Source: a virus (lineage: Duplodnaviria > Caudoviricetes). Taken from it: DNA of 64,000 bases. The stretch covers positions 128,001 through 192,000 of IMG/VR virus record IMGVR_UViG_3300049182_000044; one strand, 5' to 3'. Shown in pieces: positions 1 through 16,037 of this stretch. Below the pieces are notes generated by a model, which did not search any database, was not told the DNA's origin, and saw only the letters and a program-made list of their open reading frames with translations. The stretch's first letter is position 1. Each line of letters begins with the position of its first letter. A program made the translations under genes and the position numbers.

Positions 1-1
1 C

Positions 2-901
2 ATCATCGGCCTTACGCCGGGTACGTATCGTTCGGTCACGATTGACCAGTACGGACGTGTTACTGGCGGTACGAACCCTAGCACCCTCGCTGGTTATGGT
101 ATCACGGATGGTCAGCAGATCATCACTGGTGCTGCAACGTCGATCACTACGAACAACCTGACTGCAAATCGCGTCATGGTTAGTGACGCTTCGGGTAAGG
201 TCAGCCAAAGCACGATCACGACCAGTGAGCTGGCTACGATCAAGTCCAACAGTGATAATATGCAGGCTCTGCTTAACGGCAAGCAAGCAACGATTACTGG
301 TGCTGCATCGACCGTTGTCTCTACAAACCTGAACCCTGACGTTCTGGTTGGTACTGACGCTAACGGCAAGATGATTAGCACGACTGCGCTGCTGTCTGAA
401 GTCAACCAGCTGTCCGGTGTAACGAGTAACGTGCAGACTCAGATCAACACGAAGCTCAACAAGGCGGGGGATACGCTGACTGGACATCTGATCCAAGCGG
501 CAGCGCCGACCGTGCAGGAACACCTGGTCAACAAGCAATACGTCGATCAGCAAGTGTCTTCGCTGGCTTCGCAACCGCGTTCGATCTTCGTGACCGTGCC
601 TGGTGAGATCGTCCCGTTTGAAGGTACCCTGCGTTGGTATCCCCCGTTCCCGATCAGCGTATCGGCGTGCCGCATCTTCCAAGGTGTTGCGCCGACCATT
701 ACGGATACAGTTGTTGACGTTCGCGTGAACGCTACGACTTCGGTGTTCACTGGTGCGAAGCCGACTATCACTACGAACAACCACGAAAGCACTCTCGTCA
801 GCAGCAATGCACCGATGGGCGTGGATGACTTCCTGGTGATCGACGTAGATCAGGGTTCGGGTGAAGATCTTTCGATTCGTATTGACTACACCACTGAATA
901 A
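2..901 (+). CDS. Tail fibre protein, 5'-truncated by the window edge
   Basis: Frame is open from base 2, upstream of the track's ATG at 176. It reads GTYRSVTIDQYGRVTGGTNPSTLAGYGITD (phage fibre repeat), later KLNKAGDTLTGHL and HLVNKQYVD fibre motifs, then a C-terminal beta domain. Confidence 0.8.
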   Translation: MIGLTPGTYRSVTIDQYGRVTGGTNPSTLAGYGITDGQQIITGAATSITTNNLTANRVMVSDASGKVSQSTITTSELATIKSNSDNMQALLNGKQATITGAASTVVSTNLNPDVLVGTDANGKMISTTALLSEVNQLSGVTSNVQTQINTKLNKAGDTLTGHLIQAAAPTVQEHLVNKQYVDQQVSSLASQPRSIFVTVPGEIVPFEGTLRWYPPFPISVSACRIFQGVAPTITDTVVDVRVNATTSVFTGAKPTITTNNHESTLVSSNAPMGVDDFLVIDVDQGSGEDLSIRIDYTTE

Positions 902-11102: not shown

Positions 11103-14100
11103 TTACACCAAGGATGCTGCGAATGTGAAGGCCACGTCTTCAAAGGCTGTATCGGTAGTGCCCGTAACAACTGCACTGAAGATATCACCGCGAGCGAACG
11201 TCGTCTCAGCTTCAGCTGTGAAGCCACCTGTATCAGAAGCTGCGGAGAAGATCAACGTACCAAACTCGACTCCGTTCTTACGCAGCGAGATTTGAACGCC
11301 CGCTGCAGCGGCAACACGCGACTTGGAGATGCTGTCGCCCATACCTACTGCGAACTTACAAGCACGTGCCATGACGATGCGAACCACTTCATCGTTTTGA
11401 GCAGGCTTACCCGAGAAGGACGAAGCGAGATCATAAGGAATTGCCGCAACCTTTTGATCGGTGTAGGTTCCTGCGGCTGTAGTAGCTGCTTGTTGAGCAG
11501 CCGCTTTAGCTGCATCAACGTACTGCTTTGGAGCTGCTTCGAGATCAGCTTCAGGATCAGCTGCAAGTACGAGCGGACCTGTCAGTGTGTCACCATCAAT
11601 GTTGATGTAACGTGCATCAGTGAAGGCTGTGTCGAGCGCAACGCCAGTAGCTGAAACCGAAATACCTGCGTCACCAACAACTGCGAGGGCTGCACCTGCA
11701 CCACCACTCAGGCCGTTACCTGCAACGGACGTAGCGAGTTCAACTTCAGACACGCCTGCCGACCCAACCTTCAGGCCATTCGCGCCTACTGCCAACGATG
11801 TGCCGTCGAGCTTGACTGCAAGTTGTGCATTAGTACCTGTCGAAGACGTAGAACCGTTTTCAGTCAGGAACAAGCCACCTGTTGCACGAACATCGATGCC
11901 AACTTCATCAGTCGGAAGCTGTGCAATACCAGCACCGAGATTCACATCGAACTGATTGCCAACCGTGACCAAGCCGATACCTGCGGTGATCGTCTGCGCG
12001 CCATTGAACTGAACAAACGTTACCGGCGTAGTACCCAGCACATCAGTTGTCTTGGCCGTGCAGGTGAATGCTTTGGAACCGTTTGTAGTACCATTGCGCA
12101 CATAGATCGCAGCCTTAGCGAGTTCTTCGATAGCGTCTGCGTCTTCAGTACGAACCCAAGTACCGTTAGAACCAGTACCGAGTACGTTCACCGTGTACAA
12201 GCCATTTTCAGAAGGAGTAACAGCGTCTTTCACGAGAACGCGATCAGCAACTTGCAAAGTCACGCCATCGACAACCTTCGGAGCGCCACCGTTCAAGGTC
12301 TTGCCGCCAGACAGTGCCGTCATTGCGTAGACTTTAGTAACGCCTGCGCCGTTGCCCTCAGCAGAAGCTGTAACCAGTGACGATGCGCCTACGTGAGCGT
12401 TCACTGCATCGCGCACTTGAGCCGCAGTCGAAGCGATATCTTCTTCAGCACCGCCAGTCAGGTTGATGAATGCCTGCGCAACAGCAACACCCGAACCGTC
12501 ACCTTCAACTGTTGCATCGACGAGAGCCGTAGCTGCGTTGACTGCATCCGCTACTTCTTGAGCTGTGGATACGATTGCGAAGACTGCACCACCAGACAGA
12601 TTTGACATGGACTGAGCCAGCACGTAGCCTTGACCGTCACCAGTAGCACTCGCATTCAGGAGAGCTGCAGCTGCACCATGCGCGTTCACAGCGATTGCAA
12701 CCGCACCTGCCGTCGAAGTGATAAGGAAGTTCTCACCGCCGTTACCGAGATTGGTGAAAGCCGCTACAGCAGCCGTACCAGTACCGTCACCACCTGCGGA
12801 GGCCGTGACCAGTGTCGAAGCATCTTCATCCAGGTTGACAGCATCTGCAACTGCTTGAGCAGTAGACGAAACCGTGAAGTTTGCACCGCCAGACAGATTA
12901 GTGAAGCCGGCCGCAACTGCAATGTCAGCACCCGTGCCTTCGTAGATAGCATTGACGAGCAGAGAAGCAGTAGGATCCGCTTCAACAGCGTTCGCAACGT
13001 CCAGTGCCGTTGAGGTAACATCGCCTGCAACGTCAGTGGCCAGCGTAACGGTAATGTCATTGCCATTCACACTGATGCTCAGTGCTGTCTCAGGGGCCGG
13101 TACAGCGTGCTCGATACGGATTGAATTACCTGCGAGGCCGCCATTGACTGCAGTGTAGGTCACGCCATCATTTTCAGCTACGCCGCCAAGTGTCAACGAT
13201 GCTGCCGTATTGTCAGTAGTCGCCAAGGTAACTGCAATGTCGTTGCCTGTAACAGCTACGTCCAGCACTTGATTCGGAGCCGCAGCGATTTGGGTCACGC
13301 GAATCGAATTGCCTGTAACGCCTTCAGTGTTTGCCGCATAGGACACAGCACTATTGCCTACACCGATATCCAGGTGAGCTGCGTCACCAGCGTCCGTTGC
13401 CAACGTAACAGTCACATCCGAGCCGGCCACGCTAACAGCCAACGTCTGATCCGGAGCATCAGCGATGTGAGCGACACGAATCGAATTGCCTTCAACACCA
13501 GCTACATCCGCTACATAGACAACTGCTTCGTTCGTAGCATCGTTACCGATAACCAGATCAGCTGCAACGTCAGTGCTTGTTTCGAGCGTAACCGTAATGT
13601 CGTTGCCCGACACGTTGACTGCCAACGCTTGTCCTTGCGTCGAGCCGTTATGTGCAACACGAATCGAATTGCCTGCGATGCCTTCAGCGGCTGCTGTATA
13701 GATGACACCATCGTTAGGTGCACCACCACCAACTGTGACTGCAGCTTGATCGCCAGCAGACAGGCCGAGTGCGACAGTAATGTCGTTGCCTGCGACCGAG
13801 ACAACCGGCTGTGCACCAACTGATCCCAGTACGTGTTCGACACGGATCGAATCGCCAGCAGGACCTACGGTCTTTGCCGAATAGGTAACGTCATCGTTTG
13901 CACCAATGCCACTGACATTCAGTTGCGAAGAAGAGCCGACAGGGCCAGTTGTAGCTGCCACTGCATCATTCTTCCACACCAGGCCGGTAGCTGCATTGTC
14001 AACGTAGTTCTTGTTGACTACGTCCGTCGGGAGGACAGGCGCATCGTTCAGTGTAATCTTTGTGCCGTTCGGCATCACCAGGTTGCCCTGCATTGCGTCA

Positions 14101-14354
14101 CCGGCGACGTTCACCGGAGTGAAACCGAGGGCTTCTTGCTTCGCAGTCCAGTCAGTGATTTGAGCATCGCTTACCGTGCGATGATCCACATCTTCTTTTG
14201 CGTTCTTCAGATGGTTCAGATGAACCACTTCACTGCCAGTGCTGAAGAACACATCTTTGTCAGCTGTGTTAATGGCGATTTCGCCATCCAGCATTTGCTC
14301 CAGAGTAGGTGTGACACCTGTTTGGTTGGACCTACGATGTTGTAGACGGTTCAT
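11103..14354 (-). CDS. Large tail fibre/appendage protein: Mtd_N-like N-terminus, nested 5x repeat stalk, fibre domain, C-terminal beta domain
   Basis: MNRLQHRRS..GEIAINTAD N-terminus. WK..AATT / DGVTLQVADRVLVKD..ENGLY fibre domain split by repeats. Confidence 0.75.
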   Translation of the reverse strand: MNRLQHRRSNQTGVTPTLEQMLDGEIAINTADKDVFFSTGSEVVHLNHLKNAKEDVDHRTVSDAQITDWTAKQEALGFTPVNVAGDAMQGNLVMPNGTKITLNDAPVLPTDVVNKNYVDNAATGLVWKNDAVAATTGPVGSSSQLNVSGIGANDDVTYSAKTVGPAGDSIRVEHVLGSVGAQPVVSVAGNDITVALGLSAGDQAAVTVGGGAPNDGVIYTAAAEGIAGNSIRVAHNGSTQGQALAVNVSGNDITVTLETSTDVAADLVIGNDATNEAVVYVADVAGVEGNSIRVAHIADAPDQTLAVSVAGSDVTVTLATDAGDAAHLDIGVGNSAVSYAANTEGVTGNSIRVTQIAAAPNQVLDVAVTGNDIAVTLATTDNTAASLTLGGVAENDGVTYTAVNGGLAGNSIRIEHAVPAPETALSISVNGNDITVTLATDVAGDVTSTALDVANAVEADPTASLLVNAIYEGTGADIAVAAGFTNLSGGANFTVSSTAQAVADAVNLDEDASTLVTASAGGDGTGTAAVAAFTNLGNGGENFLITSTAGAVAIAVNAHGAAAALLNASATGDGQGYVLAQSMSNLSGGAVFAIVSTAQEVADAVNAATALVDATVEGDGSGVAVAQAFINLTGGAEEDIASTAAQVRDAVNAHVGASSLVTASAEGNGAGVTKVYAMTALSGGKTLNGGAPKVVDGVTLQVADRVLVKDAVTPSENGLYTVNVLGTGSNGTWVRTEDADAIEELAKAAIYVRNGTTNGSKAFTCTAKTTDVLGTTPVTFVQFNGAQTITAGIGLVTVGNQFDVNLGAGIAQLPTDEVGIDVRATGGLFLTENGSTSSTGTNAQLAVKLDGTSLAVGANGLKVGSAGVSEVELATSVAGNGLSGGAGAALAVVGDAGISVSATGVALDTAFTDARYINIDGDTLTGPLVLAADPEADLEAAPKQYVDAAKAAAQQAATTAAGTYTDQKVAAIPYDLASSFSGKPAQNDEVVRIVMARACKFAVGMGDSISKSRVAAAAGVQISLRKNGVEFGTLIFSAASDTGGFTAEAETTFARGDIFSAVVTGTTDTAFEDVAFTFAASLV

Positions 14355-14370: not shown

Positions 14371-15156
14371 TTAAACAGTGATCTTGCGATACAAGCCCAT
14401 TGAAATTACTGCCTTCAAGGTCTCGGTGCTACTTGCATTATGCACCGTTAGGCGGTGAATAAGCGGAGTTGGTAAAAAGCTCGGCTCGGGAGCAGCATGA
14501 GCTGTCGTGTTCGTCCCTAGCATGAGCAACTTATTGATGAAGCGAAGAAAAACAGTTTCTTCAGAATGAATGTGATACGCACCAGTATTCGTCGCGTTCG
14601 GCACCCACGTCCCATTCATCAGGTCGAAGTTACCGTTCATGAAGATCGCAGGATGCGGCACATTAGGAGGGGCAACTATCTCTACCGTGAGATAGCTTCC
14701 CATCTCAGCATTCTGATACGCTAGCGTTCCATCCTTCAGATAGATGTCATCAATGAACTGAATGTCCTTGACTATCGTTTCTCCAGGTGGCACCGCAAAC
14801 ATTAGATCTTCACCGTTACCCCTCGTCACGTCTACTAGATCATCTCCATAGCATGTGAAGTGCCTGTAATGATCTTTCGGACGATCAGAAGCGGTAATGA
14901 TACGCTTACCGTCTTTCGTCAACTGATCCACGTTGTCCATGAGAAGGTTGACTGCCTTTTCGTTGGTGTATAGTGAAACACCATCGTGTAGATGCAGGTA
15001 CCCATGGAACAAGTTGTGGACTAGGTCTTGCGATGCTTTGAAAGCGGTTATTCCGAATTGCAAACCATCGACAGTCTCTCCAGGGCCGATGGTCAGTCCG
15101 TTGAGATCAACTATCTCAACGGACACGCCAGATGGGTTTATGATGTTCCGAATCAT
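14371..15156 (-). CDS. Hypothetical (probable virion) protein, paralog of 15243-16037
   Basis: Shared DQLT(K/R)DGKRI.T.SDRP.DHYR.FT..GDD motif; likely start MIRN at 15156. Confidence 0.6.
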   Translation of the reverse strand: MIRNIINPSGVSVEIVDLNGLTIGPGETVDGLQFGITAFKASQDLVHNLFHGYLHLHDGVSLYTNEKAVNLLMDNVDQLTKDGKRIITASDRPKDHYRHFTCYGDDLVDVTRGNGEDLMFAVPPGETIVKDIQFIDDIYLKDGTLAYQNAEMGSYLTVEIVAPPNVPHPAIFMNGNFDLMNGTWVPNATNTGAYHIHSEETVFLRFINKLLMLGTNTTAHAAPEPSFLPTPLIHRLTVHNASSTETLKAVISMGLYRKITV

Positions 15157-15242
15157 GATGTGTACTACCACTCAGTGGTAGAGCCTCATAAAAGAATCTA
15201 CAAGAGAGCCGCGCTATTGTTTTTCCCGATCTTAACTACAAA

Positions 15243-16037
15243 TTAAAAAGTTATTTTTCGATACATGCCAAGCGTGACTGTCGCACGAATGGTTTCGGTC
15301 GAGCTTGCGTTATGAATACTCAATCGCACAATCCATCCTTTTGGGATGAAATTCGGTTCAGTGGTCTCAATGTTCTCTCGTTGTCGGCCCATCCCGAACA
15401 TAGCCATCTTGTTGATGAAGCGATGCACCAGGGTCTCTTGTGGCAAAATGAAATACTTACCTGTATTCGTAGCATTTGGCACCCAAGCGCCATCCACATA
15501 ATCGAAATTACCGTTTGCATTCTTTGCTGGGAAGGGCATGTTTGCAGGAACGAATAAATCGACGCGCAGCCACGACCCCATTTCAGCGTCGTAATATATC
15601 ATCGACCCATCTTTTAGATAGGTGTCGTCGATGAAGCGCACTTCAAGAGTCTGGTCCGAACTAGGAAGGACAGTGTACTGCAAGCACTGACCGTCGCCTC
15701 GAGTCTGCAAATCCCAATCGTCACCACAGGTGGTGAAGTACCTGTAGTGATCCTGAGGGCGATCGGATGTAGTGACGATACGCTTTCCGTCTCTCGTCAA
15801 CTGGTCGGGCGAGAAGCCCTTAACCAAATCGACTGCTCTTTGACCCGTGTAATCTTTAGTACCGTCATTGACTTTCAGATTTCCATCTACGATGGCGTTG
15901 ATTACATCCAGCGAGTTTTTCAGCGCCATTTCACCGAACATCAAACCATCGACGGTTTCACCCGCCTCTATGGTCAGCCCGTTAAAGTCCGTCAAGACTA
16001 ACTGTGCTTGACTTATGTTGGTTAAGTTGCGAATCAC
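15243..16037 (-). CDS. Hypothetical (probable virion) protein, paralog of 14371-15156
   Basis: Colinear similarity over the full length; both end xGMYRKITx / xGLYRKITx. Confidence 0.6.
   Translation of the reverse strand: MIRNLTNISQAQLVLTDFNGLTIEAGETVDGLMFGEMALKNSLDVINAIVDGNLKVNDGTKDYTGQRAVDLVKGFSPDQLTRDGKRIVTTSDRPQDHYRYFTTCGDDWDLQTRGDGQCLQYTVLPSSDQTLEVRFIDDTYLKDGSMIYYDAEMGSWLRVDLFVPANMPFPAKNANGNFDYVDGAWVPNATNTGKYFILPQETLVHRFINKMAMFGMGRQRENIETTEPNFIPKGWIVRLSIHNASSTETIRATVTLGMYRKITF

Follow-up and report, generated by a model that had tools for sequence, protein, structure and literature searches.

Deep self-insertion of a protein domain has so far been described mainly for Si3 of the cyanobacterial RNA polymerase, which holds eight hybrid-motif domains in a six-level, same-fold architecture (PMC13114784). 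A shallower case is the flagellin of Geovibrio thiophilus, whose solved structure (9AU6) places domain D5 inside its own duplicate, D4 (PMC11532411). Nested topology is normal in tail sheaths and flagellins, and the extra domains of sheaths are built from outgoing and returning segments of the chain (PMC9230969). This study addresses a fibre-like protein, P0001, encoded within a stretch of 64,000 nucleotides (the window) from a virus of the Caudoviricetes. The window corresponds to bases 128001-192000 of the 281,566-bp uncultured viral contig IMGVR_UViG_3300049182_000044, which CheckV rates as complete. P0001 carries five consecutive copies of a first half-domain (A1 to A5), followed by five consecutive copies of a second half-domain (B5 to B1). 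We consider it very probable that this stack is a five-level homotypic nest of one ~100-residue domain of tail-sheath type, inserted in a loop of a fibre module. P0001 would then be a case independent of Si3, with another fold and in another setting.

The half-repeat array of P0001

A self-dot-plot of P0001, scored with BLOSUM62, resolves five A repeats, recurring every ~60 residues (aa 153-447), and, directly after them, five B repeats, recurring every 46-50 residues (aa 448-690). The only A and B that adjoin are A5 and B5, and half-domain profiles read the protein as AAAAABBBBB. This order, with contiguity at the innermost pair alone, is what the initial annotation had described from the sequence, and the dot-plot, the half-domain profiles and the whole-unit profiles all bear it out; the interval it gave, 12300-13934 (aa 141-685), is almost exactly that of the array. 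As an independent test, a profile was made from 77 contiguous A+B units of other DNA. Across the entire 281,566-bp genome of the phage, it matches only the P0001 gene, where it finds one full-length match (E 5e-32), four matches of the A half (profile positions 2-55, E 2e-13 to 6e-11) and four of the B half (profile positions 45-102, E 4e-10 to 7e-8). All ten halves of P0001 therefore match the two halves of one domain profile and form one homologous family, and no further copy of the module was found by this profile in the phage's own genome. The array of five A and five B half-repeats is real and lies far above chance. Its chain order, A1..An Bn..B1 with the sole contiguity at the innermost pair, is that of a nested insertion.

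The features of the gene are as follows, in window coordinates. The boundaries of each A unit include the short lead-in strand before it, and the genome profile is the 77-unit profile above.

11103..14354, (-): whole gene, fibre-like protein P0001, 1083 aa (open reading frame list and translation)
13935..14354, (-): aa 1-140, N-terminal fibre part and first half of the host motif (WKNDAVAATTGPVG); motif unbroken in 33 homologous modules, aa 1-121 matched by representative P0012
13752..13934, (-): A1, aa 141-201, lead-in strand and first half of the predicted outermost domain, level 1; dot-plot, half-domain profiles, genome profile match to positions 2-53
13575..13751, (-): A2, aa 202-260, level 2 first half; dot-plot, half-domain profiles, genome profile
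13392..13574, (-): A3, aa 261-321, level 3 first half; dot-plot, profiles, local model confidence 87-95
13209..13391, (-): A4, aa 322-382, level 4 first half; dot-plot, profiles, superposes with B4 on the phage 812 sheath domain
13014..13208, (-): A5, aa 383-447, level 5 first half, innermost and contiguous with B5; tblastn match to the Valp1 sheath, superposition on the phiCD508 sheath
12867..13013, (-): B5, aa 448-496, level 5 second half; dot-plot, tblastn, profiles, superposition
12717..12866, (-): B4, aa 497-546, level 4 second half; dot-plot, profiles, superposition
12570..12716, (-): B3, aa 547-595, level 3 second half; dot-plot, profiles, local model confidence ~87-97, weak superposition over model range 1..334
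12432..12569, (-): B2, aa 596-641, level 2 second half; dot-plot, half-domain profiles, genome profile
12285..12431, (-): B1, aa 642-690, level 1 second half; dot-plot, half-domain profiles, genome profile
11106..12284, (-): aa 691-1083, second half of the host motif (APKVVDGVTLQVADRVLVKD...) and C-terminal fibre modules; motif, PHROG and homologue matches

Tandem Repeats Finder detects no DNA tandem repeat in the P0001 gene, and at the protein level the halves are about 42-60% identical to one another. The duplications must therefore be old.

The A+B unit as a domain of tail-sheath type

The contiguous unit A5B5 (aa 386-492) is 43.5% identical, with an E of 3e-11 in tblastn, to a segment (residues ~44-151) of the Vibrio phage Valp1 protein annotated as tail sheath, and a second search brought the sheath of Aliivibrio phage H905 as a further match to the stack. 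A5B5 is thus directly homologous in sequence to a domain inside annotated sheaths. Matches to the stack occur in three of 50,697 deposited phage genomes, each with one contiguous unit only. Single units were found in 79 open reading frames and 55 proteins, many of them with the sheath domains PF04984 or PF17482, and sheath proteins (PF04984, PF17482, PF22671) that contain A+B exactly once number in the dozens among the profile matches. Because A5B5, where the two adjoin, corresponds to the outer domain of tail sheaths, solved and annotated ones alike, A and B can be read as the halves of one domain. This was the view of the initial annotation, whose impression of a tail-sheath-type element is borne out by the identity to the Valp1 sheath and by the structural match described below (Z 9.0).

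In Pfam, the sole recurrent match is a weak one to PF17481 (Phage_sheath_domII), seen for 16 of 77 dereplicated units with a best E of 0.003. None of the 77 reaches the Pfam gathering threshold for this family, P0019 with 20.3 bits falls short of the cut-off of 31.4, and the contiguous A5B5 has no Pfam match at E<=0.1, which leaves it outside PF17481 by sequence. Sequence searches of the Protein Data Bank (PDB) gave nothing meaningful with the whole of P0001 and no match with the profile labelled "A4"; a clean unit profile gave one marginal sheath match, 8fop (E 0.016). The A+B module and the sheath outer domain are distantly related, and Pfam at present has no model for A+B.

Predicted structure and pairing of the halves

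The AlphaFold2 (AF2) model used here came from a second run and covers aa 262-595, that is, A3 to B3 (model residue equals protein residue minus 261). Its 97-row alignment comprised 76 contiguous A+B units and 20 collinear nested relatives. As was checked, all contiguous units were aligned to A5B5 only, so that no outer pairing was imposed on the model; the outer levels were covered by collinear rows only, 18 deep at level 4 and some 8 deep at level 3. Another alignment of the construct, with whole single-AB proteins (alignment A2), had divided the B halves between B5 and B4 and carried junk flanks, and was dropped. The model has a mean predicted local distance difference test score (pLDDT) of 93.5 and a predicted template modelling score of 0.72, and all five models exceed a pLDDT of 91. 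At each modelled level, the A part is predicted as two strands, a short turn helix and three more strands, and the B part as two helices and two strands.

Superposition of the model with VIA-align returned tail sheaths at each modelled level. Model residues 120..232, which hold the lead-in strand, A5 and B5, superpose on the phiCD508 sheath (9g8s_e) with Z 9.0 and a root-mean-square deviation (rmsd) of 3.0 Å over 101 residues, and on the sheaths of Lin1278 (3lml_F, Z 8.5) and phage 812 (8q1i_O, Z 7.7); a further sheath match to the model is 9ezm_A (Z 7.1). Over model range 62..281, the phage 812 sheath is matched equally well, with 87-91 aligned residues at an rmsd of 2.7-3.0 Å (8r5g_N, Z 7.4, 3.0 Å; 9eui_E, Z 7.3). 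Since only 87-91 residues are aligned in this range, the 110-residue A5B5 is skipped and the match is of the lead-in strand and A4 with B4. Over model range 1..334, the phiKZ sheath 9xpf_A is matched with 97 residues at Z 3.0, corresponding to A3 and B3. In an unbiased scan of 48,161 representative chains, Z>=5 was reached by sheath proteins only. The Geovibrio thiophilus flagellin 9AU6 was absent from the structural matches to the A3..B3 model and domains D2-D3 of FliD matched at Z 2.0-2.2 only; kinship with either is not claimed.

By this prediction, the A+B module has the three-dimensional fold of the solved sheath outer domain. The model shows the nest at levels 5 and 4, and A3 and B3 probably form the same fold at level 3. 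An outer domain built from two separated segments is accordingly seen in the model at level 4, and weakly at level 3. Of the full A_i-B_i pairing that the initial annotation had proposed, the superposition ranges uphold levels 5 and 4 and lend level 3 weaker support; levels 1 and 2 are an extrapolation.

Among viral predicted structures, the best match is BFVD A0A6J5P7Z2, a 530-residue protein of an uncultured Caudovirales phage (E 9e-11, 286 aligned columns, 22% identity), which may be another multi-unit array of the A+B module.

Relatives and depth of nesting

Half-domain profiles were iterated on their matches, and 255 proteins and about 100 loci were classified. The commonest forms among the classified proteins are a single A+B unit and tandem ABAB... 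arrays of up to seven. Mirror arrays recur at several depths: 2+2 (P0187, P0177, P0192, P0193, P0208, P0216, P0217, L021, L041, L044, L065, L068, L077, L080), 3+3 (P0173, P0206, L068, L080), 4+4 (P0054, L077), 5+5 (P0001, P0019, P0163 and, weakly, P0199) and 8+8 (P0096). Variable depth with equal numbers of A and B is what the initial annotation had expected of homologues. Apparent imbalances between A and B vanish at lenient thresholds, except in four giant proteins, which are taken up below. Two proteins are of the form AAA-X-BBB, P0158 (aa 211-486) and P0189 (aa 202-326), with 274 and 124 central residues of other sequence, unrelated or highly degenerate; the central insert of P0158 has no Pfam match. 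From these two proteins it follows that the A|B loop also takes other inserts.

Giant bacterial open frames (>1600-2500 aa, running off their loci) were observed in L068, L077, L080, L096-L098 (one contig set of an Opitutales metagenome-assembled genome), L044 and L065. They mix several separate mirror arrays (AABB, AAABBB, AAAABBBB) with tandem units, so nesting is not limited to phages. The A+B module, single or tandem, also occurs in FlgE-like hook proteins (P0152, P0160, P0184, P0188, P0203, P0210), in flagellin/FlgL-like proteins (P0161, P0178, P0179, P0181, P0190, P0197) and in proteins with a PF13400 domain (P0166-P0168). Filament-forming proteins seem to share it as an "outer domain" module that Pfam has yet to model.

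Possible signatures of recursive insertion

The clearest trace of the order of duplication is in P0173, an AAABBB protein 42% identical to the P0001 array. Its A2 and A3 are 84% identical, with A1 at ~50% from both, and its first and second B are 72% identical, with the third B at 37-40% from both. Correlation of the A and B identity matrices gives r = 1.00 for nested mapping versus r = -0.60 for sequential mapping. With A2/A3 and the first two B closest and A1 and the last B as outliers, the recent duplicates are mirror images, as predicted if a whole A+B copy was inserted in the innermost A|B loop. In P0096, the correlation points in the same direction (nested r 0.57 versus sequential 0.17).

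Covariation was assessed with a partner-matching score from mean-field direct coupling analysis (DCA), trained on 308 contiguous units only. A first control was inflated by orthologous training units; under strict exclusion, tandem controls gave a mean z of ~1.4, a modest power. Across six arrays with n>=3, nested pairing scored positive in all (z 0.69-1.54, Stouffer 2.7) and sequential pairing gave a Stouffer value of -2.0. We take DCA as supporting evidence only. As a historical mechanism, the recursive insertion that the initial annotation had deduced from the order of the halves is supported only indirectly, through the mirror-image duplicates of one homologue, P0173.

The fibre module split by the stack

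The host motif W[KR]..AATT..(L.G)..DGV....DRVLV spans 34-38 residues in 33 homologous fibre modules. In P0001, WKNDAVAATT starts at residue 127 and DGVTLQVADRVLV at residue 696, so that W127 and D696 stand ~570 residues apart. As the motif is contiguous in the 33 modules and split in P0001, the stack interrupts a loop of a common phage fibre/decoration module, and the initial annotation was right to place it inside one. By tblastn, the host module matches proteins annotated as tail fiber, capsid decoration or structural protein.

Proposed architecture and alternative explanations

In the architecture that we propose, the domain would be nested in itself five times, always in the loop that joins strand 4 to the first helix. 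The domain would consist of a lead-in strand, four strands with a G..GN.I.V turn, two helices, two strands and an LSGG turn. The chain would run from the host module through A1, A2, A3, A4 and A5, pass directly into B5, and return through B4, B3, B2 and B1 to the host, each A packing with its own B into one globular bead. Every joint between beads would be crossed by two segments, the outgoing A-to-A lead-in strand and the B-to-B return, and such double joints would give an arm stiffer than a beads-on-a-string array. Each fibre subunit may thereby carry a five-bead side arm of roughly 12-20 nm, leaving and re-entering one fibre-module loop. Because the outermost halves lie ~490 residues apart, the beads would have to fold from the inside outwards. 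Growth of the arrays probably occurs at the innermost bead, whose A|B loop would take up a complete A+B copy. As to its role, we tentatively favour a surface-exposed spacer or weak-adhesion arm, by analogy with the outer domains of sheaths, hooks and flagellins (PMC9230969, PMC11532411).

Several points weigh against this architecture. The first AF2 run, on aa 120-760 with five nested homologues, gave a mean pLDDT of 38 and was discarded. In the model that was kept, pairing was read from the first and last aligned residues and the aligned length of the superpositions, instead of a contact map; the level-3 superposition is weak (Z 3.0), and levels 1-2 of P0001 are taken to pair like the modelled levels by extrapolation. 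In P0001 itself, the identity correlation between A and B is r 0.2 (rank 46/120), and r -0.11 on repetition, a comparison made uninformative by the age of its duplications, and the DCA score for P0001 alone, which has low power, is z 0.69 for nested pairing (rank 32/120). The four giant proteins hold seven A halves against five or six weak B halves, which may be degenerate or truly unequal. Unequal counts are what the initial annotation had named as evidence against nesting; none were found among the homologues, with these four proteins ambiguous. Finally, the function and the geometry proposed for the arm, and any oligomeric state, are conjectural.

The mirror order would also be kept if the A halves of each chain in a fibre oligomer found their B partners on an adjacent chain. 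Trimers are the usual form of phage fibres, and the AF2 run was of a monomer, which leaves room for such a swap. The monomer model is already very confident, however (pLDDT 93.5), the same domain is intramolecular in solved sheaths, and the contiguous innermost unit needs no partner chain, so an exchange between chains is unlikely. Less likely still is that the array is two independent tandem arrays, five all-beta repeats followed by five helix-strand repeats, with equal numbers by coincidence. The linear order by itself is compatible with this, and the first AF2 attempt gave no confident packing. Yet A+B is one compact domain in solved sheaths and A4 with B4 superposes on that domain; each half matches just its own half of the whole-domain profile, the recent duplicates of P0173 are mirrored, and equal counts recur at depths 2, 3, 4, 5 and 8 in independent proteins.

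Sequential pairing, in which A halves and B halves join in their order along the chain (A1 with the first B), would produce a closed ring or zipper. It predicts equal counts too and has nothing specific in its favour, and it is contradicted by A5 joining the first B without a linker, by the model range 62..281 that joins A4 with the second B, by the negative DCA result (Stouffer -2.0) and by P0173 (r = -0.60 versus +1.00 for nested pairing); we regard it as extremely unlikely. An assembly or gene-calling artefact in repetitive metagenomic DNA has to be considered for an uncultured viral contig, but its probability is close to nil: the repeats are too diverged to mis-assemble (no repeat in Tandem Repeats Finder, halves 42-60% identical), the 3.2-kb frame is open, and the same architecture is present in unrelated contigs and in bacterial genomes. 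The nest within a single chain, with the stack set in a fibre-module loop, is the reading that we carry forward.

Genomic setting

The P0001 gene is the final gene of a minus-strand block of tail-fibre and baseplate genes, and its frame is uninterrupted over 3.2 kb. Its upstream neighbours on the same strand match PHROG families of tail fibre, minor tail and baseplate wedge proteins. The C-terminal half (aa 662-1082) matches phrog_16122, phrog_30390 and phrog_2647, aa 690-980 have thousands of fibre or decoration homologues, and aa 690-930 match proteins annotated as tail fiber, some being annotated as head or capsid decoration. By its place in this block and by modules common to annotated fibres, P0001 belongs with the fibre proteins; against Pfam it has no match, even at E<=1.

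The database copy of the protein (P0002, 1063 aa) begins at Met21 of the longest open reading frame. With the longer start (window 14295..14354, -), the protein gains MNRLQHRRSNQTG..., a sequence similar to the motif at the N-terminus of many fibre proteins; translation may therefore truly begin at the upstream ATG at 14354. Adjoining the gene and directly upstream of it is a paralogous pair of genes, of ~265 aa each, at 14371..15171 (-) and 15243..16037 (-). The two share the motifs LTKDGKRI..SDRP.DHYR.F and HNASSTET, and neither has a PHROG match.

Comparison with known systems

A literature search on nested domain insertion in tail sheaths and on self-insertion found no relevant paper. The relatives at depths 2, 3, 4, 5 and 8, together with tandem forms, make the growth of nested architectures testable, with P0173 keeping the signature of the last duplication; folding across hundreds of residues and the mechanics of nested versus tandem arms are testable as well. 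For phage biology, the array would represent a new way to build a side branch on a fibre, and sheaths, flagellar hooks, flagellins and fibres are linked through their outer domains by one module that Pfam does not capture at present. A broader and more doubtful idea is that A+B is a specialised "professional insert" for the outsides of sheaths, hooks, flagellins and fibres, with the loop between strand 4 and helix 1 as a self-accepting hotspot and nesting depth (2-8) as an evolvable length dial. If this were true, the dial would give stiff, doubly connected arms, as opposed to floppy tandem arrays of the same module, and P0001 would be a natural system for inside-out folding, with domain halves up to ~490 residues apart.

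Si3 of the RNA polymerase beta' subunit (2023; Alvarez-Carreno et al. 2024) is like the P0001 array in that a small fold is repeatedly self-inserted in the loop of a host domain, to 5-6 levels; both chains run out and back, and both would form a projecting arm, which for P0001 is a prediction. The fold of Si3 is the beta hybrid motif and its host is a cellular enzyme, whereas the P0001 array is built from an unrelated alpha/beta domain of sheath type in a putative virion fibre. Si3 mixes nested and sequential domains, while the P0001 array is a pure A^5B^5 nest. Unlike Si3, the A+B module has relatives at depths 2-8 and as long tandem arrays. The G. thiophilus flagellin resembles P0001 in that, on the exterior of a filament-forming protein, a domain sits inside its own duplicate; it differs in having two levels only and in its domains, described as a DUF992-like beta-sandwich fold.

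The outer domains of tail sheaths (phiCD508 9g8s/9gb1, Lin1278 3lml, phage 812 8q1i/8r5g, T4 gp18 3fo8, phiKZ gp29 3j0h) share the fold predicted for A+B, at Z 7-9 and an rmsd of ~3 Å over ~90-100 residues. In the chains of phage 812 (8q1i_O, 8r5g_N), T4 gp18 (3fo8_D) and phiKZ gp29 (3j0h_A), the equivalent domain occupies a range of 220-280 residues, of which ~90 are aligned, so the sheath domain of these three phages is itself split by an inserted domain. Sheaths, however, carry a heterotypic, shallow nest that decorates a contractile polymer, and P0001 a homotypic one, five deep, in a fibre protein. The tandem ABABAB arrays (P0154, P0110 and the FlgE-like P0152) use the same module and motifs as P0001; they are joined head to tail with one connection per joint, whereas the nest would have two. 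As deep recursion in Si3 and a two-level flagellin have been described, the principle of nesting is already known. New are the type of fold, its place in a putative virion fibre, the pure A^5B^5 order, and a family that spans depths 2-8 alongside tandem forms.

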